41,140 nucleotides of DNA from Deltaproteobacteria bacterium (GTDB taxonomy: Bacteria > Desulfobacterota > Desulfobacteria > Desulfobacterales > ETH-SRB1). The stretch is from contig JAIVWD010000003.1 of NCBI GenBank assembly GCA_049190315.1, positions 1 through 41,140 of the forward strand. Reading direction: 5' to 3'. The notes beneath the pieces were generated by a model that worked only from the letters and a program-made list of their open reading frames with translations, was not told where the DNA came from and ran no database searches. Made by a program: the position numbers and the translations under genes. Of the stretch, positions 2,400 through 12,235 are shown piece after piece. The stretch's first letter is position 1; each line of letters begins with the position of its first letter.

Positions 2400-4607
2400 A
2401 TGTCCAAAAAATATTATGCGCACACCTTGGATGGAAAACCACCCTCCGACTGGCAGCCGCTGGAAGAACATCTGAAAAATGTCGCAGAAATGGCCCGATT
2501 GTTTGCTATGGCTTTTGGCGCTGGGGATTGGGGTTATTTGGCGGGGCTGTGGCATGATTTGGGGAAGTATTCCGAGGCATTTCAGCAGCGTCTTGGCACT
2601 GCAGAAGGAACTGACGCACACATTGAAACAAAACCGGGACGCGTTGATCATTCCACTGCCGGGGCACAGTATGCTTTCAATATTCTGAGAGATAAAGGGA
2701 AAATATTAGCTTACGCCATCGCCGGTCATCATGCCGGGCTTCCGAATGGCAAAGCAAATGAAGCTTCAGATCTTACCAGCAGACTTAAAAAAAATGTCCC
2801 CGATTATTCTTTTTTCCCGAATCAACTTTTTAATATCGCTACATTAAACGACCCGCCTTTTATGTTAGATCAAAAGCGTTTTGGATTCCAACTTTCCTTT
2901 TTTGTCAGGATGATCTTCTCAAGTCTTGTCGATGCGGACTTTCTGGATACAGAAGCGTTTATGGATAGCGAAAAATCTTTATGGCGAAAAGGCTATCCCG
3001 ATCTCTCTGAAATGAATAATAAACTGACCTTAGCACTCAACAAACTGATTGAGAGCGCTTCGGATACGCAGATAAATGAACATAGGATAAAAATTTTAAA
3101 AAATTGTCTTGATGCTGCCGAATCCCCGCAGGGCTTGTTTTCTTTAACGGTTCCCACTGGAGGAGGGAAGACTCTTTCGTCTCTCGCTTTTGCAATAAAA
3201 CACGCCCTAAAACACGGTTTTGAAAAAATTATTTACGTTATCCCTTACACCAGTATTATTGAACAAAATGCGGCTGTTTTTCGAGATATTTTCGGAGAAA
3301 ACGCTGTTCTGGAACATCACAGTAATTTTGAGCCGAAAGAAGAAGATCATCGCTCCCGTCTGGCTGCTGAAAACTGGGATGCTCCGCTGATAGTTACAAC
3401 CAATGTACAGTTTTTTGAATCATTATACCGTTGCAGGTCATCACGTTGCAGAAAAATTCATAATATTGCAAAGAGTGTGGTTATATTAGACGAAGCACAG
3501 ATGCTCCCTGTTCCGCTTTTGAGACCCTGCATGGAGGTTTTAAGAGAGCTTTCGTCCACATATAGAACAACAATTGTCTTGTGTACTGCCACTCAGCCAG
3601 CTTTATCGACAAACGAAAATTTTAAAGATGGTCTGGACGGGGTGCAGGAAATTATCCCTGATCCCGCAAAACTTTACAATCTGTTTAAACGCATTCACAT
3701 TGAAATTTTGCCCGTACTTTCTGATGATGTTTTAGCAGACAGACTAAACGCACATGATCAGGTTTTGTGTATTGTAAATACACGTAAACACGCCCGATTA
3801 GTTTTTGAAAGTATTCGAGATCAGGAAGGTTGTTATCACCTTAGCGCTTTGATGTGTCCCGCGCACAGAACAAAGAAGTTTAAAGAAATAAGAAGTGCTC
3901 TTTCCAAAGGTCTCCCTTGCCGAGTCGTAAGCACACAGTTGATTGAGGCTGGGGTGGACATCGATTTTCCCGTGGTATATCGCTGTGCAGCAGGTATCGA
4001 TTCTATTGCACAGGCAGCCGGGCGGTGTAACAGGGAAGGGAAAATACATGAAGGCGGCAAAGTTTATGTCTTTTTATCTGAAACCGGTTTGCCCCCGGGT
4101 CATTTCCGTCATGCAGCCGAGACTGCTGAAGCCGTAGTACGTCATCACGATGATCCTCTGTCGCTTGAAGCCGTTGAAGAGTATTTCAGGACTTTATATT
4201 GGATGAGGGGTGAACGGCTGGATGAACATCAAATCCTTGATGACCTGAACGAAGGGAAACGAAAAGGTGATTTTCCATTCAGGGTTGTGGATAAAAAGTT
4301 CAAAATCATAAAGGATGACATGGAGTCGATTATCATTCCATGGAAGGAGAATGAGCAAGATAAGGATGCCGAAAAAATTATTCAGGGTTTGCGTTATTCT
4401 GAGTATCCCGCAAGCTTGGCGCGCAAAGCTCAGCGTTTTACTGTCCAGGTGCCGCCGCGCGTATTGAGCAGCCTGGAATATGCCGGCAGTGTAGAACGCC
4501 TGCATGATCAGTATTGTGTGCTGATCAATATGGACTTATATCGCGATGATCTTGGACTTTGTTCTGAAGACCCGACTTTTCACAGACCGGAAAGTCTGAT
4601 CGGATAG
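2400..4607 (+). CDS. cas3: CRISPR-associated helicase/endonuclease Cas3 (HD nuclease + SF2 helicase), type I-C context
   Basis: HD motifs GLWHDLGK, DHSTAG and IAGHHAGL. Helicase motif I is VPTGGGKT, motif II is LDEAQ and motif III-like is CTATQP. It heads a cas5c-cas8c-cas7c-cas4-cas1-cas2 set. Confidence 0.95.
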   Translation: MSKKYYAHTLDGKPPSDWQPLEEHLKNVAEMARLFAMAFGAGDWGYLAGLWHDLGKYSEAFQQRLGTAEGTDAHIETKPGRVDHSTAGAQYAFNILRDKGKILAYAIAGHHAGLPNGKANEASDLTSRLKKNVPDYSFFPNQLFNIATLNDPPFMLDQKRFGFQLSFFVRMIFSSLVDADFLDTEAFMDSEKSLWRKGYPDLSEMNNKLTLALNKLIESASDTQINEHRIKILKNCLDAAESPQGLFSLTVPTGGGKTLSSLAFAIKHALKHGFEKIIYVIPYTSIIEQNAAVFRDIFGENAVLEHHSNFEPKEEDHRSRLAAENWDAPLIVTTNVQFFESLYRCRSSRCRKIHNIAKSVVILDEAQMLPVPLLRPCMEVLRELSSTYRTTIVLCTATQPALSTNENFKDGLDGVQEIIPDPAKLYNLFKRIHIEILPVLSDDVLADRLNAHDQVLCIVNTRKHARLVFESIRDQEGCYHLSALMCPAHRTKKFKEIRSALSKGLPCRVVSTQLIEAGVDIDFPVVYRCAAGIDSIAQAAGRCNREGKIHEGGKVYVFLSETGLPPGHFRHAAETAEAVVRHHDDPLSLEAVEEYFRTLYWMRGERLDEHQILDDLNEGKRKGDFPFRVVDKKFKIIKDDMESIIIPWKENEQDKDAEKIIQGLRYSEYPASLARKAQRFTVQVPPRVLSSLEYAGSVERLHDQYCVLINMDLYRDDLGLCSEDPTFHRPESLIG

Positions 4608-4659
4608 ATATGACAATTCAACAACTATACAGCATTACAAAGAAAGCTAAAAAATAATA

Positions 4660-4688
4660 TTGACAAATAGATTTATCAGGTTTATCAT
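4660..4688 (+). promoter_or_regulatory. Near-consensus sigma70-type promoter (TTGACA-17 nt-TATCAT) reading toward the NYN gene and cas5c
   Basis: TTGACA at 4660-4665, a 17-nt spacer at 4666-4682 and TATCAT at 4683-4688. The predicted TSS is about 4695. Confidence 0.6.
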
Positions 4689-4691
4689 TTC

Positions 4692-4710
4692 TTCAATGTA
4701 ATGATTTAAT
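4692..4710 (+). promoter_or_regulatory. PAM-flanked partial protospacer for the mini-CRISPR psi-spacer (candidate Cascade operator)
   Basis: TTC (4692-4694) is followed by AATGTAATGATTTAAT (4695-4710). The psi-spacer 5617-5632 is AATGTGATGATGTAAT, so 14/16 match, with mismatches only at positions 6 and 12. Similarity is lost from position 17 onward. Confidence 0.7.
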
Positions 4711-4754
4711 AAAAACGCACTTACAAAAATAAGATTTTTGCAATATTATTTCCT

Positions 4755-4784
4755 GAAAAAAGAAACGCCCCTTTTCAGGGGCGT
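4755..4784 (-). terminator. Intrinsic terminator oriented for the minus strand
   Basis: An 8-bp GC-rich stem (4765-4772 ACGCCCCT / 4777-4784 AGGGGCGT) with a 4-nt loop. On the minus strand it is followed by TTCTTTTTT. On the plus strand no T-run follows. Confidence 0.6.
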
Positions 4785-4823
4785 CGGTCCAGCGATACTA
4801 TCACTGGAGGGGCTAACTATCTA
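4755..4823 (-). ncRNA. Candidate ~65-70 nt small RNA, antisense to the leader of the NYN transcript
   Basis: Minus-strand promoter-like TTGATT (4858-4853)-17 nt-TATAGT (4835-4830) lies about 45 nt upstream of the minus-oriented terminator. There is no start codon in the interval. It contains CCCCUCC. Confidence 0.3.
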
Positions 4824-4927
4824 ATAAATACTATATGCATACTTAGCTCATAAATCAAGAAAAATTTTCTGTAAATCATACAACAATCAGTAGCAAACAA
4901 AAAAGAACTTACAGGTGCAACTAAAAT

Positions 4928-5548
4928 ATGGAAAGAATAATAGTTTATATTGATGGTTTTAACCTTTATTTCGGGATGAAGGAAAAAGGGTGGCGAAGGT
5001 ATTACTGGTTGAATGTACACTTGCTCGCAAAAAATTTACTCAAGCCTTATCAGAAGCTCATTGAAACAAAGTATTTCACAAGCCGTGTGTCCTCAATGCC
5101 AAATGATCCGGGAAAAGCCAAGCGTCAAGGAGAATATCTGGAAGCCCTTAGTACAGTTCCCATGTGCAAGATTTTTTACGGCCATTATCTCGGGAAAAAA
5201 ATACATTGTAATAAATGCGGTAATTTCTGGACTACCCATGAGGAAAAAATGACGGATGTCAACATTTCTGTTGAACTAATAACAGATGCATATCAAGACA
5301 AATTTGATACTGCATTTCTAATATCTGGAGACAGCGATCTTGTGGGGCCGATCAAAGCTGTTCGTCGCCTCTTCCCGCTGAAGAAGGTAGTTGTGGGATT
5401 CCCACCCTGCAGGCATTCAGCACAATTGAAAAAAGTTGCTAACGCCATTTTTGTCATAAGTCGCAAAAAAATATCGGAAAGTATACTTCCCGATCAAGTA
5501 AGAAAAATCGACGGATATATTTTGCGCAGGCCTGATAGATGGAAATAA
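4928..5548 (+). CDS. NYN domain (LabA-like, PIN-fold RNase superfamily) protein inserted between cas3 and cas5c
   Basis: RIIVYIDGFNLYFG at the N-terminus, EEKMTDVNISVELI, and FLISGDSDLVGPIKAV, which are the acidic motifs typical of NYN/LabA domains. A CxxC (CNKCG) sits between them. SD AGGTG lies at 4913-4917. Confidence 0.75.
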   Translation: MERIIVYIDGFNLYFGMKEKGWRRYYWLNVHLLAKNLLKPYQKLIETKYFTSRVSSMPNDPGKAKRQGEYLEALSTVPMCKIFYGHYLGKKIHCNKCGNFWTTHEEKMTDVNISVELITDAYQDKFDTAFLISGDSDLVGPIKAVRRLFPLKKVVVGFPPCRHSAQLKKVANAIFVISRKKISESILPDQVRKIDGYILRRPDRWK

Positions 5549-5583
5549 CATGACTGACTTTCTGTGTTTTTTAAATCATATAT

Positions 5584-5684
5584 GTCACCCTATTAAATGG
5601 GGTTGTGGATTGAAACAATGTGATGATGTAATTCCAAAAGAAAAGTCGCCCATACTTATTATATATGGGCGTGGATACTTGAAG
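5584..5684 (+). CRISPR. Degenerate mini-CRISPR: psiR1 (5584-5616), 28-nt psi-spacer (5617-5644), psiR2 (5645-5684); CreA/CreR-like
   Basis: psiR1 is GTCACCCTATTAAATGGGGTTGTGGATTGAAAC. Its last 11 nt are identical to the canonical repeat at 12165-12196, and its stem is decayed. psiR2 is GTCGCCCATACTTATTATATATGGGCGTGGATACTTGAAG, with GTCGC plus an 8-bp stem (CGCCCATA/TATGGGCG) retained and the handle decayed. It ends 2 nt before the cas5c SD. Confidence 0.8.
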
Positions 5685-5701
5685 AAAAGGAGGGATACTA
5701 T

Positions 5702-6355
5702 ATGTCTTATGGCGTCAAATTAAGAGTTTGGGGAGAATATGCGTGTTTTACCAGGCCGGAGATGAAGGTGGAACGGGTAAGTTACGATGTGATAACACCA
5801 TCTGCTGCCCGCGGAATTTTGGAAGCAATTTACTGGAAACCGGCAATAAGCTGGGTAGTGGATTGTATCCATGTAATGAATCCTGTGAGATTTGATAATA
5901 TTCGGCGTAATGAACTTGCAGGAAAATTGCCAGTGGGTACGATTAAAAAGGCAATGAAAGACGGTGGTTCTCCTGTTGAGGTCTTTATTGAAGATAATCG
6001 CCAGCAACGTGCGGCAATGGTGCTGCGGGATGTTTCTTACGTCATTGAAGCACATTTTGAGTTTACAGGTTCTGAAGATAATAATGCCGCCAAGCACAAA
6101 GAAATTTTTGACCGCCGCGCTCGCAAGGGACAGTGTTTTCATCATCCTTATCTTGGCTGCCGTGAATTCCCCGCACACTTTGAATTAATAGAGGATGGCA
6201 TTCCGATATCAAAACTTACCGGCAAACAGGATCTGGGATGGATGCTTCACGATATAGATTTTAATAACAACATGGAAGCGAAGTTTTTCAGAGCGGTTAT
6301 GCAAAATGGCATTATTGACGTGCCTCCATTTGACGGACAGGAGGTGAAAGCATGA
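5702..6355 (+). CDS. cas5c: Type I-C Cas5c (Cas5d), the pre-crRNA processing subunit
   Basis: [44 protein letters not shown] is the hallmark Cas5d N-terminus. SD AAGGAGGG lies 7 nt upstream. ATGA overlap with cas8c. Confidence 0.92.
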
Positions 6356-8061
6356 TTCTTCAGGCATTGAGCAGTTATTATGACAGGTTAGAAAAAAATA
6401 CCAATGTGGCTATACCTCTCTTGGGATTCAGTAGTAAGGGAATCAATTTTGCTTTATTGCTCAATCATGAGGGGAAATTGCTTCAGATTCTTGACTTGAG
6501 AGAAACACAGGGAAAAAGATTATTGCCCAAACAGATGATTGTTCCAGAGGCAGTGATTAAATCAGTAAATATTGCCTCAAATTTCATGTGGGACAACACA
6601 GGGTATGTCCTTGGGGCAGATAATAAGGGGAAACCCAAAAGATCCGTGGAAACCTTTGAGGCGTTCAAGAAACTTCATCATGATATTGGTGAAGGGCTTG
6701 ATGATGAAGGCATGATAGCTGTCCTGCAATTTCTGGATTCATGGAATCCTGCGGATGCACCGGAATTGAAATATTGGGATGATATGGTGACAGGGGCGAA
6801 CCTCGTCTTTCAATTGGATGGTGAACTTCGTTACATTCATGATCGGCCAAAGATCAAGGATGCCTGGTTGAAACATTATTCCAAAAATAGTTCAGGAGTT
6901 GTTGCCACATGCCTTGTCTGCGGGGAAGAAAAACCAGTTGCTCGGTTGCATCCTAAAATAAAGGGGGTTAGAGGGGCTCAAACTGCCGGGGCAGCCATTA
7001 TTTCATTTAATCTGGAGGCCTTTCTGTCTTACGATAAAAAACAAAATTTCAATGCGCCCGTCAGCGAGGACATAACCTTTGCCTATACTACTGCGCTCAA
7101 CCATCTTCTCCGCTTTGAAAGTCGCCAGAAAGTCCAGATTGGTGATGCTGCTACGGTTTTTTGGACAGAGAGAGAGTCGCCGATAGAAGGGTTTATGGGG
7201 ATGATTTTTGACCCACAGGATGATTCTGGAGATACAATGGATATTCGCCTGTTTCTGGAGGCAGTAAGGGATGGGAAGATGCCATCAGAAATCGGTGATC
7301 CGGACATTAAATTTTACATTCTTGGTCTTTCTCCCAATGCTTCCCGACTTTCCGTTCGATTTTGGCATGTGAGCACAGTTGGAGATATAGGTGCCAAGAT
7401 TGGTCAACACTTTAAAGACCTGTCCATAATTAAGAATTACGACAGCGATCCGGAATTTCCGGGTATGTGGCAACTTTTAAGGGAAACCGCGATGTTGCGA
7501 AAATCGGACAATATTTCTTCAGTGCTTGCAGGGTCGGTTATGCGCTCAATATTAACAGGCACTGCTTATCCTCAAAGTTTATTGACGGCAATCATAAATC
7601 GCATACGAGCGGATCAAACAGTAAACTATCTGCGTGCGGCACTGATAAAGGCGTGTCTGGTTAGAAAATATCGTATTACCAATAAATCTATGGAGGTAAC
7701 TATGGCATTAAATAAAGAATCAACAGACATTGCGTACCTGCTGGGCAGACTTTTTGCTGTCCTTGAAAAGGCCCAAAAAGACGCCATTCCTGGTGCAAAT
7801 ACAACCATCAAGGACCGTTTTTACGGCTCTGCGTCTGCAACGCCTCGCATTGTATTCCCGCAATTGCTCAGGTTAGCCCAGCATCACATTCAAAAAGCTG
7901 AATACGGGCGCAATACTGACAAAATAATTGAGGAGATCATGCAGGGCATTCAGAAATTCCCCGCTCATTTGAGTTTGGACGATCAGGGTCTGTTTGCTAT
8001 CGGGTATTACCATCAAAGAAAGGCATTCTATACTGAAACAGCAAAAAATAAGGAGAAATAA
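6352..8061 (+). CDS. cas8c: Type I-C large subunit Cas8c (Csd1)
   Basis: The [14 protein letters not shown]-terminus is typical of Csd1. It sits between cas5c and cas7c and is 569 aa long. Confidence 0.88.
7702..8061 (+). CDS. cas11c: Probable internally translated small subunit Cas11c (in frame within the cas8c 3' end)
   Basis: GGAGGT (7692-7697) lies 4 nt upstream of the in-frame ATG 7702 ([12 protein letters not shown]...). This gives 119 aa of helical C-terminal domain. Internal Cas11 translation from cas8 genes is reported for type I-C. Confidence 0.55.
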
Positions 8062-8063
8062 TC

Positions 8064-8951
8064 ATGGCTGAAGCTATTCATAATCGTTACGAATTTGTAT
8101 ATCTTTTTGATGTGGAAAATGGCAATCCCAACGGTGATCCGGATGCAGGCAATATGCCCAGAATAGATCCAGAGACAAGTTATGGGCTTGTCACGGATGT
8201 ATGCCTGAAACGGAAAATTCGTAATTTTGTAGAGATCGTCAAAGGCAATCAATCTCCTCACGAAATCTATATCAGAGAAAAAGCAATCCTGAACCAAACC
8301 CATAAACGGGCACATCAGGCTGTTGGAGTAAAAGATGAGGGTGAGAGCAAAAAACGCAAAGGATCGGGAGCAGATGTTGAAAAGGCCCGTGCCTGGATGT
8401 GCGCCAACTTTTTTGATGTGCGCACTTTTGGCGCTGTCATGTCTACAGGCGTTAATTGTGGGCAGGTCAGGGGGCCTGTTCAACTGAACTTTGCACGTAG
8501 TATAGAATCCATTGTCCCGATGGAAATCAGCATCACCCGTATGGCGGTGACAACGGAAAAAGAGGCCGAACAGCAAAGCGGCGATAACCGAACAATGGGG
8601 CGCAAGCACATCGTTCCTTATGCCCTTTATCGGGCCGAAGGCTATATATCCTCACATTTGGCAACCCAAACAGGATTCACAGAAGAAGATTTAAAGTTGT
8701 TATGGGGAGCACTCATTAACATGTTTGATCATGATCACTCTGCAGCACGGGGGAAAATGAATGCACGCAAATTGATCGTATTTAAACACGACTCAATGCT
8801 TGGAAATGCCCCAGCTCACAAGTTGTTTGACCTTGTAAAAGTAAAACGAGCAACAGATGAATCTATTCCGGCTCGCGCATTTTCAGATTACAATGTTACT
8901 ATAGATCGGAATAATATGCCGCAAGGTATAACTCTCGAAGAAAAGATATAG
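8064..8951 (+). CDS. cas7c: Type I-C backbone subunit Cas7c (Csd2)
   Basis: [47 protein letters not shown] is the Csd2 signature. Confidence 0.92.
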
Positions 8952-9195: not shown

Positions 9196-9831
9196 ATGAC
9201 TCGAAAAACAGCAAAAAAAATCGAAGACATAAATTCCGATCTTGGCGAAATCGTATTGTATCAGTCTGAGGACGGGCAGGCCGCACTGGATGTTCATCTT
9301 CAGAATGAAACCGTATGGTTGACTCAGGCGCAGATGGAGAAGCTTTTTCAACGGGACCAATCGGTTATTTCCAGGCATGTGAACAATATTTTCAAAGAAG
9401 GTGAACTGCAACGGCGAGGCAATATGCAAAAAATGCATATTGCAAATTCAGATAAGCCGGTTGCGTTTTATAATCTTGACATCATCATTTCTGTTGGCTA
9501 CCGGGTAAAATCTCAACGCGGTACCCAGTTTCGCATCTGGGCTACCACCATTCTAAAAGACCATCTGGTACGTGGTTATTCGCTTAATCAGCGCAGACTG
9601 GCCGCCCATCTCCTCTACTTCGTGATCAAGGATCATCCTTTCACGGATGGTAACAAAAGGATCGGCTCTTTTCTCTTTCTGTTGTTTCTCAAGAAAAATG
9701 ACTTGCTGGATCAAAAAAGCTTCAGCAACAAGGCGCTCGTAGCGCTTGCCCTTCTGACTGCCGCCAGTGAACCGGGGCAAAAGGAATTGATGATTCGGCT
9801 TATTGTGAACCTTATTTCGGAGGAAGGCTGA
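9196..9831 (+). CDS. RhuM-N-terminal domain fused directly to a Fic/DOC core (apparently an internally deleted RhuM/Fic/DOC family protein)
   Basis: The N-terminus (IVLYQSEDGQAALDVHLQNETVWLTQAQM..., VISVGYRVKSQRGTQFRIWAT) is RhuM-like. The C-terminus carries the Fic motif HPFTDGNKR. At 211 aa it is short compared with the roughly 330 aa I recall for this family. Confidence 0.7.
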   Translation: MTRKTAKKIEDINSDLGEIVLYQSEDGQAALDVHLQNETVWLTQAQMEKLFQRDQSVISRHVNNIFKEGELQRRGNMQKMHIANSDKPVAFYNLDIIISVGYRVKSQRGTQFRIWATTILKDHLVRGYSLNQRRLAAHLLYFVIKDHPFTDGNKRIGSFLFLLFLKKNDLLDQKSFSNKALVALALLTAASEPGQKELMIRLIVNLISEEG

Positions 9832-9859: not shown

Positions 9860-10510
9860 ATGTACTCAGAAGACGACCTCATTCCCCTCTCCGCCTTGCA
9901 GCATCTGATTTTTTGCGAGCGGCAGTGTGCCCTGATTCACATCGAGCAGGCATGGGCGGAAAACCTTTTTACTGCTGAAGGCAAAATTATGCATGAACGG
10001 GTTCATGAGGCAGACCGGCAATCCAGAGGCAAGGTTCGCATTGAGTACAGCATGTGGCTTCGTTCATTGCGGCTGGGGCTGATCGGCAGGGCGGATGTCG
10101 TCGAGTTTCATCGGAAGCCGGATTTGTTGAAAGCAGGATCGGAAGTATGGGTACCGTTTCCTGTGGAATACAAACGGGGCAAACCAAAGAAAGATAATTG
10201 TGATAAAGTACAGCTTTGCGCCCAGGCTCTGTGCCTGGAAGAAATGCTAAATGTTGAAGTCCCATGCGGTGCGCTCTTTTACGGAAAAAAACGACGGCGT
10301 ACAGATGTTGTCTTTGATGATTTATTGAGACAGCAGACTGAAGACACTGCAATGCGTCTTCACGAACTGATTGCATCAGGCCGGACTCCAAAACCAGTAT
10401 ATATGAAAAAGTGTGACAGTTGTTCACTTGTCAAGATATGTTTGCCGAAAACTATTGAAAGAAAGCGTTCCGTAAAACGCTACTTATCGGGAGTGATTCG
10501 AGAATCATGA
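9860..10510 (+). CDS. cas4: CRISPR-associated exonuclease Cas4 (RecB-like, Fe-S)
   Basis: N-terminal Cys in LIFCERQCAL. RecB-type core ADVVEF ... VEYKRGK. C-terminal CDSCSLVKIC cysteine cluster. ATGA overlap with cas1. Confidence 0.9.
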   Translation: MYSEDDLIPLSALQHLIFCERQCALIHIEQAWAENLFTAEGKIMHERVHEADRQSRGKVRIEYSMWLRSLRLGLIGRADVVEFHRKPDLLKAGSEVWVPFPVEYKRGKPKKDNCDKVQLCAQALCLEEMLNVEVPCGALFYGKKRRRTDVVFDDLLRQQTEDTAMRLHELIASGRTPKPVYMKKCDSCSLVKICLPKTIERKRSVKRYLSGVIRES

Positions 10511-11538
10511 AAAAACATCTTAATACCCTTTTTGTAACTACGCAGGGAGCCTATCTTGCAAAAGAAGGCGAATCGGTTGTCGTAAGAGTGGAAAAAGAAA
10601 CCCGTCTGCGCATCCCTGTTCATACGTTAGGAGGGATTGTCTGTTTCGGCAATGTTGGTTGCAGCCCTTTTTTAATGGGCTTTTGCGCCGAGCGTGATGT
10701 GGCTATCAGTTTTTTATCTGAGTATGGGCGCTTTCTTGCAAGGGTGCAGGGGCCTGTTTCAGGAAATGTCCTGCTTCGCCGAGAGCAGTACCGCAGGGCA
10801 GATGACATGACATTTTCTGCCCAAATGGCAAGATCTGTACTTACCGGTAAAGTTGCCAACTGCCGCACTGTATTGCAGAGGGCATTAAGAGACCACTCCG
10901 ACAAGCTTGATACAGATCAAGTCAGTCAAGCGTCAAGGCAGATTAGCGGTTCTCTGAAGCGCTTGCAGGAAGATGTACCTTTGAATTCCCTGCGGGGCAT
11001 TGAAGGCGACGCTGCACATGTCTATTTTAAAGTGTTTGATCATCTGATTACCTCTCAAAAACAAGACTTCTTTTTCCAGGATCGAAATCGGCGGCCACCA
11101 TTAGATAATGTAAATTGCCTGCTGTCGTTTTTATACACACTTGTAATGCACGATGTCCGTTCTGCCCTTGAATCTGTGGGATTGGATCCGGCTGTCGGTT
11201 TTTTGCACAGAGACCGTCCCGGCAGACCGGGACTTGCGCTCGACCTGATGGAAGAATTTCGTCCTTTTATTGCAGACCGCTTGACGCTTTCATTGATAAA
11301 CCTTTCACAGGTGCAGAAAAAAGGATTTAAAAATTCAGAATCAGGCGCTGTATTGATGGATGACGAAACAAGAAAAATCGTTTTGGTTGCATATCAGAAA
11401 CGAAAACAGGATGAGATAATGCATCCGTTTATTGAAGAAAAGGTCACAATCGGCTTGTTGTTTCATACGCAGGCTTTATTGCTGGCTCGTTACCTGCGCG
11501 GTGATCTGGATGGTTATCCACCTTTTATCTGGAAATAA
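10507..11538 (+). CDS. cas1: CRISPR-associated endonuclease Cas1 (type I-C)
   Basis: LNTLFVTTQGAYL, GIEGDAAHVYF, NCLLSFLYTL, VGFLHRDRPGRPGLALDLMEEFRP are canonical Cas1 motifs. Confidence 0.95.
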   Translation: MKKHLNTLFVTTQGAYLAKEGESVVVRVEKETRLRIPVHTLGGIVCFGNVGCSPFLMGFCAERDVAISFLSEYGRFLARVQGPVSGNVLLRREQYRRADDMTFSAQMARSVLTGKVANCRTVLQRALRDHSDKLDTDQVSQASRQISGSLKRLQEDVPLNSLRGIEGDAAHVYFKVFDHLITSQKQDFFFQDRNRRPPLDNVNCLLSFLYTLVMHDVRSALESVGLDPAVGFLHRDRPGRPGLALDLMEEFRPFIADRLTLSLINLSQVQKKGFKNSESGAVLMDDETRKIVLVAYQKRKQDEIMHPFIEEKVTIGLLFHTQALLLARYLRGDLDGYPPFIWK

Positions 11539-11574: not shown

Positions 11575-11606
11575 GTCGCCTTGGCGCACGGGGCGTGGAT
11601 TGAAAC
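11575..11606 (+). CRISPR. Solitary type I-C repeat between cas1 and cas2
   Basis: GTCGCCTTGGCGCACGGGGCGTGGATTGAAAC is 32 nt. Its 5' GTCGC and the 3' 13 nt (CGTGGATTGAAAC, including the 11-nt handle) match the repeat at 12165-12196. The stem is weaker (4 WC + 2 GU pairs). No partner repeat lies within spacer distance. Confidence 0.8.
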
Positions 11607-11630: not shown

Positions 11631-11921
11631 ATGTTTGTACTGGTCAGCTATGATGTCGCCACAAGTAAGGATGGAGGACCGCGCCGTCTGCGCAGGGTGG
11701 CAAAGGCGTGTCTGGATTATGGGCAGCGGGTTCAATATTCCGTTTTTGAGTGCATAGTCGATCCTGCACAGTGGACGGTTCTTCGCCAAAGGTTAATTGA
11801 TGAAATTGACCCGAATGAAGATAGCCTGAGGTTTTATTTTTTAGGATCAAATTGGAAACGTCGTGTAGAGCATGTTGGAGCTAAAAAGGCGGTCGATCAG
11901 GAGGGGCCGTTGATTGTTTAA
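11631..11921 (+). CDS. cas2: CRISPR-associated endoribonuclease Cas2
   Basis: MFVLVSYDVATS... RRVAKAC.DYGQRVQYSVFEC... 96 aa with the typical Cas2 ferredoxin-fold signature. Confidence 0.95.
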   Translation: MFVLVSYDVATSKDGGPRRLRRVAKACLDYGQRVQYSVFECIVDPAQWTVLRQRLIDEIDPNEDSLRFYFLGSNWKRRVEHVGAKKAVDQEGPLIV

Positions 11922-12164: not shown

Positions 12165-12196
12165 GTCGCTCCCCATGCGGGAGCGTGGATTGAAAC
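12165..12196 (+). CRISPR. Single canonical type I-C repeat (array reduced to one unit)
   Basis: GTCGCTCCCCATGCGGGAGCGTGGATTGAAAC has a perfect 7-bp stem (CGCTCCC/GGGAGCG), a 5-nt loop and the I-C-typical ...GTGGATTGAAAC 3' end. Confidence 0.9.
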
Positions 12197-12207: not shown

Positions 12208-12235
12208 GTGTTCCCCACAGGCGTGGGGATGAACG
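12208..12235 (+). CRISPR. Single type I-E-like repeat 11 nt after the I-C repeat
   Basis: GTGTTCCCCACAGGCGTGGGGATGAACG has a 7-bp stem (TCCCCAC/GTGGGGA). It follows the GTGTTCCCC...GGGGAT.AAC pattern of I-E repeats (compare E. coli GTGTTCCCCGCGCCAGCGGGGATAAACCG). No further unit follows. Confidence 0.75.

Follow-up and report, generated by a model that had tools for sequence, protein, structure and literature searches.

In the left part of a 41,140-nucleotide stretch of DNA from a Deltaproteobacteria bacterium (contig JAIVWD010000003.1; the whole stretch is referred to here as the window), a type I-C CRISPR-Cas locus within a small defence island was identified by open reading frame (ORF) calls, Pfam and PADLOC. 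Between its cas3 and cas5c genes lies a cassette containing a gene for an NYN/LabA-type RNase of the HEC-09 family, a predicted small-RNA gene antisense to the leader of this gene, and a mini-CRISPR whose spacer matches a site at the promoter preceding the NYN gene. Our tentative first choice among the interpretations is an NYN and antisense-RNA module captured under the control of a CreR-type guide, by which a doubly locked guard or addiction layer resembling CrePA would be combined with CreR-type autoregulation. An earlier note on this DNA had described a 1.1-kb cassette of promoter plus operator, NYN gene and mini-CRISPR between cas3 and cas5c, and this order was confirmed. The cassette and the genes flanking it consist of the following features.

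2400-4607, + strand: cas3, HD nuclease-helicase (Pfam Cas3_HD, DEAD and Cas3-like_C_2), the upstream border of the cassette
4608-5701: the 1.1-kb insert between cas3 and cas5c, i.e., the cassette
4660-4688, + strand: sigma-70-type promoter, TTGACA (4660-4665), 17-nt gap, TATCAT (4683-4688), 11/12 match
4692-4722, + strand: TTC protospacer adjacent motif (PAM, 4692-4694) and partial protospacer (4695-4722, seed 4695-4710), the putative Cascade-CreR operator over the transcription start
4755-4823, - strand: predicted small RNA of ~70 nt with C-rich 5' tail and 9-bp hairpin, antisense to the NYN/cas leader, ends approximate
4785-4764, - strand: terminator hairpin of the small RNA, with a U-run after it, from the promoter/terminator scan
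4830-4858, - strand: small-RNA promoter, TTGATT-17 nt-TATAGT, convergent with the Cascade-targeted promoter
4928-5548, + strand: NYN/LabA-type RNase gene of the HEC-09 family, ATG start, 206 aa, located between cas3 and cas5c
5584-5616, + strand: psiR1, degenerate I-C repeat GTCACCCTATTAAATGGGGTTGTGGATTGAAAC, hairpin intact, its 3' end being an exact GTGGATTGAAAC, from which the 5' handle would derive
5617-5644, + strand: psi-spacer of 28 nt, AATGTGATGATGTAATTCCAAAAGAAAA
5645-5684, + strand: psiR2, degenerate repeat, hairpin kept, 3' end decayed (TGGATACTTGAAG)
5702-6355, + strand: cas5c (Pfam Cas_Cas5d)
6352-8061, + strand: cas8c (Pfam Cas_Csd1)
8064-8951, + strand: cas7c (Pfam Cas_Cas7)

The site TTGACA-17-TATCAT is the best promoter-like site on the + strand between 4500 and 5800 and is predicted from the sequence to drive the NYN gene, the mini-CRISPR and cas5c-cas8c-cas7c. 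Three bases past its -10 hexamer TATCAT a TTC begins, which is the PAM of type I-C systems, and this is followed by AATGTAATGATTTAAT. The target AATGTAATGATTTAAT agrees with the start of the psi-spacer, AATGTGATGATGTAAT (5617-5632), at 14 of 16 positions, the mismatches being positions 6 and 12. Type I Cascades flip out each sixth base of the target, which stays unpaired, and both mismatches fall on such positions. On both strands of the 41 kb, the promoter site is the sole non-self site with all 14 non-sixth seed positions matching (14/14) and the only top match that carries a TTC PAM; the runners-up reach 11/14 and are without PAM. For 17 fixed bases over ~82,000 positions the chance expectation is ~5e-6, equal base frequencies being assumed.

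The hairpins of psiR1 and psiR2 both fold. With two degenerate repeats around a spacer, lying within the cas locus but apart from the array, and with a spacer matching only by its seed a site that carries the cognate PAM and lies directly past a promoter -10, the arrangement is that of CreR/CreA-type guides. The NYN start codon is located 233 nt past the start of the protospacer, and the guide begins 36 nt past the NYN stop codon. In the promoter/terminator scan, no terminator-like site was found on the + strand in 4500-5800 and no promoter-like site on the same strand from a weak one at 4720-4749 (9/12) to cas5c, so that the NYN gene, the guide and cas5c-cas8c-cas7c most simply form one predicted transcript. 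The sharing of a Cascade-targeted promoter by the NYN gene and the three effector genes, as proposed in the earlier note, is consistent with this.

The same arrangement was searched for in other genomes. A one-genome-per-species scan resulted in 34 NYN loci (L001-L034), six of which are I-C loci, while the other 28 gave no tblastn match to the Cas proteins of the window. At least four diverged I-C lineages share the order of targeted promoter, NYN gene, mini-CRISPR and cas genes. Five of the loci (L001-L005) belong to Desulfobacteraceae or Syntrophaceae metagenome-assembled genomes and have an NYN identity of 81-89%. L001-L003 show the complete order cas3, NYN, cas5c; in L005, NYN is followed by cas5c on a contig that begins just upstream of NYN; and in L004, an array comes after cas3, NYN and the guide, and the contig lacks cas5c. 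L001-L004 retain the promoter, the TTC and the seed, with variation mainly at positions 6 and 12. In the window and in L001-L003 the spacer-target pair is AATGTnATGATnTAAT, with the target on the + strand past the -10, and the L004 spacer matches the promoter target over the first 9 bases only. Among the close relatives, the PAM together with protospacer positions 1-16 is 90.8% identical to the window and positions 17-28 are 45.8% identical; for the spacer the values are 87.5% and 64.6%, respectively, and psiR1 has an identity of 90.2%. At L004:2180-2332, psiR1 and the regulatory spacer are followed by canonical I-C repeats with ordinary spacers and not by psiR2 and cas5c; this locus may be rearranged or mis-assembled.

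More diverged I-C loci carry other spacers together with other targets. In L006 (Desulfosarcina), with an NYN identity of 61% and effector genes of only 30-38% identity, NYN lies upstream of cas3, and a mini-CRISPR again comes after it. Its different spacer (AATATTACTATC...; AATATTACTAT) has its best match within 20 kb at a TTC-flanked 11/11 site on the - strand, immediately upstream of the TTGACA in front of NYN. The cas3 gene of L006 is interrupted by a 479-aa minus-strand ORF, possibly a transposase (L006:10783-14227). In L162 (NYN identity 65%), NYN is located upstream of cas3-cas5c-cas8c-cas7, and the spacer TATAAGATATGTCTAT differs only at position 6 from the target TTC+TATAAAATATGTCTAT, which lies over the -10 of a TTGACA-17-TATTTT promoter. 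In L160, a TTC-flanked site over the -10 agrees with the spacer at 8 of the 8 bases known. L156 and L158 (NYN identity 69-70%) have the small RNA, NYN and a mini-CRISPR with yet another spacer, followed by cas5c; their contigs begin within the small-RNA element, and the promoter region lies outside the contig. In total, at least three distinct spacer-target pairs and a fourth that is partly seen (L160) co-vary, each with a TTC PAM at a promoter.

In all I-C-embedded cases the NYN gene is located between the target and the mini-CRISPR, with cas5c or cas3 as the next gene. Homologous psiR1 copies (GTCAC..stem..GTGGATTGAAAC, with compensated stems) follow NYN in L006, L156, L158, L160 and L162, and since psiR1 is alike across these lineages, the junction of NYN and guide looks as if it had been inherited as a unit. 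The earlier note had called for a survey of the co-occurrence of NYN genes and psi-repeats. In an unbootstrapped neighbor-joining tree, the co-occurrence holds within the clade that contains all I-C-embedded copies, where a guide is located beside 11 of 14 NYN genes, and does not extend beyond it (0/25). In a clade centred on Desulfobacterales the module keeps to a single order within I-C loci: the promoter with its overlapping TTC-PAM partial protospacer, the antisense RNA gene, NYN, the mini-CRISPR and the effector cas genes.

The promoter upstream of the small-RNA element differs between CRISPR and other loci as well. On the + strand it scores 11.5 in the window, L001 and L002, and a weaker TTGACA (9.5) is found in L004 and L006; in the non-CRISPR NYN loci the same region mostly scores 5-9, and none of these sites is conserved. 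Since a TTGACA-type promoter is found at this place in the I-C-embedded copies only, the operator-promoter belongs to the CRISPR circuit, and an origin as a piece of a generic NYN module was ruled out. A metagenome pattern scan for psiR1 followed by AAT was discarded as too permissive, and its allowed gap was too short for the psiR1 of the window itself; it retrieved ordinary gut I-C arrays, in which neither NYN nor the small RNA was found.

The region between the targeted promoter and the NYN gene, described in the earlier note as a 230-nt leader, is indeed present, but it is not a plain leader, as it contains a conserved, predicted small-RNA gene on the minus strand. A search with the leader by nhmmer revealed a central block upstream of nearly every NYN homologue, whether or not the locus is a CRISPR one. 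After iteration, 39 copies with constant orientation to NYN were obtained, covering 31 of the 32 genome loci with enough upstream sequence, and the element was also present in 6/6 extra contigs with enough sequence. It thus is located upstream of nearly all HEC-09-type NYN genes in many phyla (L001-L034, L155-L163). No match was found in 695 kb of unrelated I-C loci. NYN relatives at <=41% identity are without the element, save one weak match in L165. Of the NYN relatives on viral or prophage contigs (L163-L198, IMG/VR), only the closest evaluable one, L163 (52% identity), has it.

The alignment of the element consists of a C-rich 5' tail, a hairpin of 8-9 bp and a terminator hairpin followed by a conserved GUUUCUUUUU. 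Compensatory changes are present in 10 of the 14 pairs and 95.6% of the cells pair, which is reached by none of 500 shuffles. The copy in the window has a minimum free energy of -28.9 kcal/mol (z=-4.47), and among close relatives the element is the most conserved non-coding segment (95.6% identity). At a constant distance from the 5' tail, TTGACA-17-TATAnT is found on the minus strand in ~30 loci; the mean best score of this promoter is 10.1 versus 8.05 +/- 0.86 for shuffled sequences and 8.19 for the opposite strand. A comparison of 4600-5720 with Rfam (E<=10) resulted in sub-threshold chance matches only, with no match to a CreT RNA; the best of them, SpF41 (22.6 bits, cut-off 52), covers the terminator hairpin only.

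An interpretation of the element as a leader structure or terminator of the + strand was ruled out, as the U-run and the conserved promoter are located on the minus strand. Furthermore, ~65 cells of the alignment are G-U on the minus strand compared with ~9 A-C cells, which would be G-U if the + strand were read, and no T-run is found past the hairpin on the + strand. From its sequence, the element is best read as an RNA of ~70 nt that is complementary to the 5' leader of those NYN transcripts whose start lies further upstream. Pairing of the C-rich tail in trans with the ribosome-binding site of NYN was also rejected (cognate -8.5 versus shuffled -9.1 kcal/mol, p ~0.93), and cis-antisense pairing with the leader is the sole remaining plausible action of the small RNA. 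As the antisense gene travels with NYN everywhere, the NYN gene likely has a regulator of its own that is independent of Cascade. In the preprint on HEC-09 (bioRxiv 10.1101/2024.01.29.577857), a term search found neither non-coding RNA nor CRISPR.

Additional copies of the element occur at several places. Two tandem copies are located upstream of NYN in L012, L018, L023, L024, L027 and L030. In L023 a third copy is found 2.3 kb upstream (L023:7693-7747), and an orphan copy that no NYN follows is located upstream of cas3 in L002 (L002:7108-7160). Two metagenome contigs start inside the element (L156:1-54 and L158:2-58), and two others, L157 and L159, start just after it, ~175 nt upstream of NYN; this suggests that those genomes contain repeated copies of the element, at which the assemblies break.

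The ORF at 4928-5548, named in the earlier note as an NYN-domain gene, is a real one. Its product matches Pfam NYN (PF01936) with 41.5 bits (cut-off 24.2) over residues 3-172 and the PADLOC model of HEC-09 with E=2.3e-90, residues 1-206 corresponding to model positions 1-203 of 203. The acidic residues predicted in the earlier note belong to the catalytic motifs: D9 (YIDGFN), D135 and D137 (both SGDSD) do not vary among 37 aligned homologues, and neither do N12, E106, K107, D110 and the CxxC pair C94/C97. The AlphaFold2 model shows the three-layer PIN-like/NYN fold and has a pLDDT (predicted local distance difference test) of 92.5, and its top and sole strong match in a fold search against the PDB is 2QIP (VPA0982; E=2.6e-10, target-normalised template modelling score 0.71), which we take to be a member of the LabA/NYN family. 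Among close relatives, the ratio of nonsynonymous to synonymous substitution rates (dN/dS) of the NYN gene is 0.11-0.27, i.e., it is under purifying selection. A sequence search against the PDB with the NYN protein gave nothing meaningful, no family was assigned to it by NCBIfam, and Pfam gave NYN as the sole match, without homology to KilAC or CreP. As judged from sequence and model, the gene is maintained and encodes a catalytically plausible RNase with an intact active site.

The family to which the protein belongs is large, with at least 4,046 NYN homologues at E<=1e-20. HEC-09 was named by Payne et al. as an NYN/MARF1-like gene embedded in Hma (bioRxiv 10.1101/2024.01.29.577857). In L025, the neighbours of NYN are HmaA, HmaB and HmaC according to PADLOC, and ~8 further loci have the arrangement hmaA, NYN, hmaB; apart from L025, the Hma assignments result from BLAST clustering. 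In L017, L018 and L021, NYN is located between the methylase (Mod) and the restriction enzyme (Res) of a type III restriction-modification (RM) system, and other copies stand alone or have as neighbours a type I methylase, a BrxL-like gene or ordinary housekeeping genes. The location of the window copy within a multigene I-C defence operon agrees with this nesting habit, and whenever the module is nested it shares the orientation of the operon. A specific association of the family with CRISPR, as would be expected of a CrePA or CreTA toxin, was not found: the NYN family occurs mostly in Hma, type III RM and non-defence contexts, and those of the 28 loci without Cas matches whose neighbours were annotated have Hma, RM or other surroundings. 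The NYN gene can therefore not be regarded as a CRISPR-dedicated toxin.

The contexts of the family also bear on a second explanation, which we consider a serious contender: the NYN gene and the small RNA may be a self-contained passenger, either a type I-like toxin-antitoxin (TA) module or an accessory defence candidate, that borrows the transcription of the operon, while the mini-CRISPR only autoregulates the Cascade genes as a plain CreR. The place between promoter and guide would then be a harmless insertion point, kept by close linkage. This is consistent with the occurrence of the same module between hmaA and hmaB, between Mod and Res and in non-defence settings, with its constant operon orientation and its lack of a conserved + strand promoter of its own, and with the other embedded fragments of candidate defence genes in the locus of the window (RhuM/Fic, DUF1016 and ORF6N). 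CreR-type elements without a toxin have been reported, I-C systems included (10.1101/2023.03.10.532045). However, the NYN gene is located exactly between target and guide in every I-C case, over ~61-97% NYN identity and in two operon positions. The homology of psiR1, which points to an NYN-guide junction inherited as a unit, also argues against a passenger, as does the restriction of promoter and operator to the copies linked to a mini-CRISPR.

Several points weigh against the interpretation as a captured, doubly locked module. The NYN family is overwhelmingly non-CRISPR and nests in other defence operons without any mini-CRISPR, so that the co-regulation found here could be incidental. The tested HEC-09 representative gave no defence against the phages tried in E. 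coli, and in the accessible text toxicity of the cloned gene was not reported (bioRxiv 10.1101/2024.01.29.577857). The NYN tree carries no bootstrap values, and no sister I-C loci with the same mini-CRISPR but without NYN were found, the metagenome scan having been too permissive for a census of this guide family; the cassette may have arrived as a unit, or a pre-existing CreR circuit may have acquired NYN later. Transcription running on from cas3 might reach NYN as well.

If the captured-module interpretation is correct, Cas5c would cut the mini-CRISPR transcript into a CreR/CreA-like guide, and Cascade loaded with this guide would bind the seed-matched site over the transcription start without cleavage. 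This binding would repress the single transcript with NYN, guide and cas5c-cas8c-cas7c. As long as Cascade works, NYN mRNA would be scarce and the remainder would be neutralised by the antisense RNA acting as antitoxin. Titration of Cascade, its inhibition by an anti-CRISPR or its loss would let the near-consensus promoter fire, and the NYN mRNA would rise. Because the two promoters face each other at a distance of ~140-200 bp, small-RNA synthesis would be expected to fall by convergent transcription, and the RNase would be made and would arrest the cell.

A more far-reaching version of this interpretation appears rather unlikely as a whole. According to it, the cassette is a mobile I-C guard with two locks, the Cascade-bound guide and the antisense RNA; HEC-09 in general would be a two-component, type I-like TA system with an NYN RNase as toxin; and a convergent-transcription switch would lead from anti-CRISPR action or Cascade loss to RNase-mediated dormancy. 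The same module would guard Hma and type III RM systems by a transcription-coupled route.

The closest known system is CrePA, in which a KilAC-domain protein toxin is repressed by CreA and Csy and which is located in the cas3-csy1 gap of I-F loci in Acinetobacter (bioRxiv 10.1101/2024.01.05.574328; reviewed in PMC12737573). A protein toxin under Cascade control is therefore not new as such, contrary to what the earlier note had assumed. In both systems the cassette is found in the gap after cas3, with a degenerate two-repeat mini-CRISPR and a seed-only spacer match to a PAM-flanked site at the promoter of a protein ORF. The distance from target to ORF is ~120 bp in CrePA and ~230 bp in the NYN cassette, and the predicted logic is the same, i.e., inhibition of Cascade releases the protein. 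As in CrePA and CreTA, the NYN gene is located directly downstream of the guide-targeted promoter and adjoins the guide gene.

The differences concern the subtype (I-C versus I-F) and the cargo, which is a 206-aa NYN RNase whose toxicity would have to be assumed and not a 103-aa KilAC cell-division inhibitor. The indirect indications on toxicity are mixed: the RNase site is intact and the antisense RNA is of a TA-like kind, but toxicity of the cloned HEC-09 was not reported in the accessible text. The NYN cargo belongs to a family found mostly outside CRISPR loci, whereas homologues of CreP are almost exclusive to I-F loci (bioRxiv 10.1101/2024.01.05.574328). Furthermore, guide and NYN are predicted to share one transcript, on which the guide is downstream and the effector genes come next, so that autoregulation of the cas genes would be built in, and the NYN cassette has an additional conserved antisense small RNA. 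The NYN cassette would hence work like CrePA and yet stand outside that family, without CreP homology and without a CRISPR-specific family.

Regulatory mini-CRISPRs of the CreA/CreR kind, which target promoters by the seed only, are well established. CreR autorepression circuits have been defined as guides without a co-occurring toxin gene, and I-C examples were noted (bioRxiv 10.1101/2023.03.10.532045, 10.1101/2023.03.03.530964). The cassette shares with them a degenerate mini-CRISPR in the cas locus, the spacer of which is partly identical to the region of the promoter for the effector cas genes, and differs from them by the 206-aa nuclease gene and the small-RNA gene between the targeted promoter and the guide. 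With HEC-09 it shares the protein family and the nesting in multigene defence operons. HEC-09 was described as a single protein gene within Hma, whereas here an I-C operon, a Cascade-targeted promoter and an antisense small RNA are found.

The layout of the NYN gene and its small RNA is, as a prediction, that of a type I TA system, since the antisense RNA gene has its own promoter, its own terminator and covariation support. In type I TA systems such as tisB/istR-1 and zor/orz, an upstream antisense or divergent small RNA acts on the 5' UTR (untranslated region) of the toxin, and nuclease-type toxins occur in SymE/SymR and RalR/RalA. The features in common are a structured small RNA that has a promoter and a terminator of its own and is encoded opposite the leader of a gene with potential to do harm, and the tandem arrangement at some loci. 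Here, however, the putative toxin is a 206-aa NYN RNase and not a small membrane peptide, and the predicted small RNA does not overlap the ribosome-binding site. In the papers searched, no description was found of an NYN RNase or any HEC-type cassette under such control, of an I-C case with protein cargo, or of an antisense small RNA that accompanies HEC-09.

NYN/LabA-type proteins include RNA-processing enzymes, as is generally known for this fold, and NYN is presumably co-transcribed with the guide and the Cascade genes. A non-toxic helper role is conceivable on these grounds: NYN would trim or degrade the leader, the guide, the cas mRNA or the antisense duplex and so tune the levels of Cascade or guide. 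The missing report of HEC-09 toxicity in the accessible text fits such a role. This explanation is improbable, however, as Cas5c already processes the guides of I-C systems and as the occurrence of the same module beside Hma, RM and housekeeping genes, where no guide RNA is found, argues against a CRISPR-specific processing enzyme.

If NYN is released on Cascade failure, CRISPR-repressed protein toxins, so far a single I-F family, would extend to I-C systems and include an effector that is a nuclease. The regulatory arm of Cascade could then have ordinary embedded defence cassettes wired into it, and one promoter would serve both cas autoregulation and a guard against anti-CRISPRs. With the conserved antisense small RNA, HEC-09 becomes a module of two parts, which offers a concrete and testable reason for the lack of a phenotype of the protein alone. 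If NYN is only a passenger, the locus would still be a clean example of I-C CreR autoregulation with co-varying spacer-target pairs.

Outside the cassette and the effector genes, the following features were annotated in the locus.

239-1483: DUF1016/YhcG PD-(D/E)XK nuclease (PADLOC PDC-S02), upstream of cas3
1706-2254: ORF6N protein (PDC-S05), directly upstream of cas3
9196-9831: RhuM/Fic fused remnant ORF (PADLOC PDC-S23/PDC-S05)
9860-10510: cas4
10507-11538: cas1
11631-11921: cas2

The array of the window is down to one full I-C repeat at 12165-12196, and no CRISPR array was detected in the window by Tandem Repeats Finder (TRF), whereas the relatives L001-L003 have 6-45 repeats. That the I-C system is decaying in this genome and the cassette is a relic without function, as the loss of the array might suggest, is nevertheless very improbable, since all cas ORFs of the window have full length, the NYN ORF and active site are preserved together with the promoter, the PAM, the seed, both guide hairpins and the small RNA, and intact effector genes kept without an array are what an addiction module predicts.

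Eleven bases past the I-C repeat, a type I-E-like repeat GTGTTCCCCACAGGCGTGGGGATGAAC is located at 12208-12234, followed by the RseC-Rnf operon. A lone I-C repeat, GTCGCCTTGGCGCACGGGGCGTGGATTGAAAC, was found at 11575-11606 within the 92-nt gap between cas1 and cas2, which measures only ~12-15 nt in L001-L003; the sequence preceding it resembles the leader end that precedes the repeat at 12165. The 5' end of cas4 is duplicated at 8956-~8999 (resembling 9860-9900), and the RhuM/Fic remnant ORF follows. This remnant is a second nested cassette, between cas7c and cas4, and is present in L002 too. Several ORF6N fragments are found in L001 at the same place upstream of cas3.

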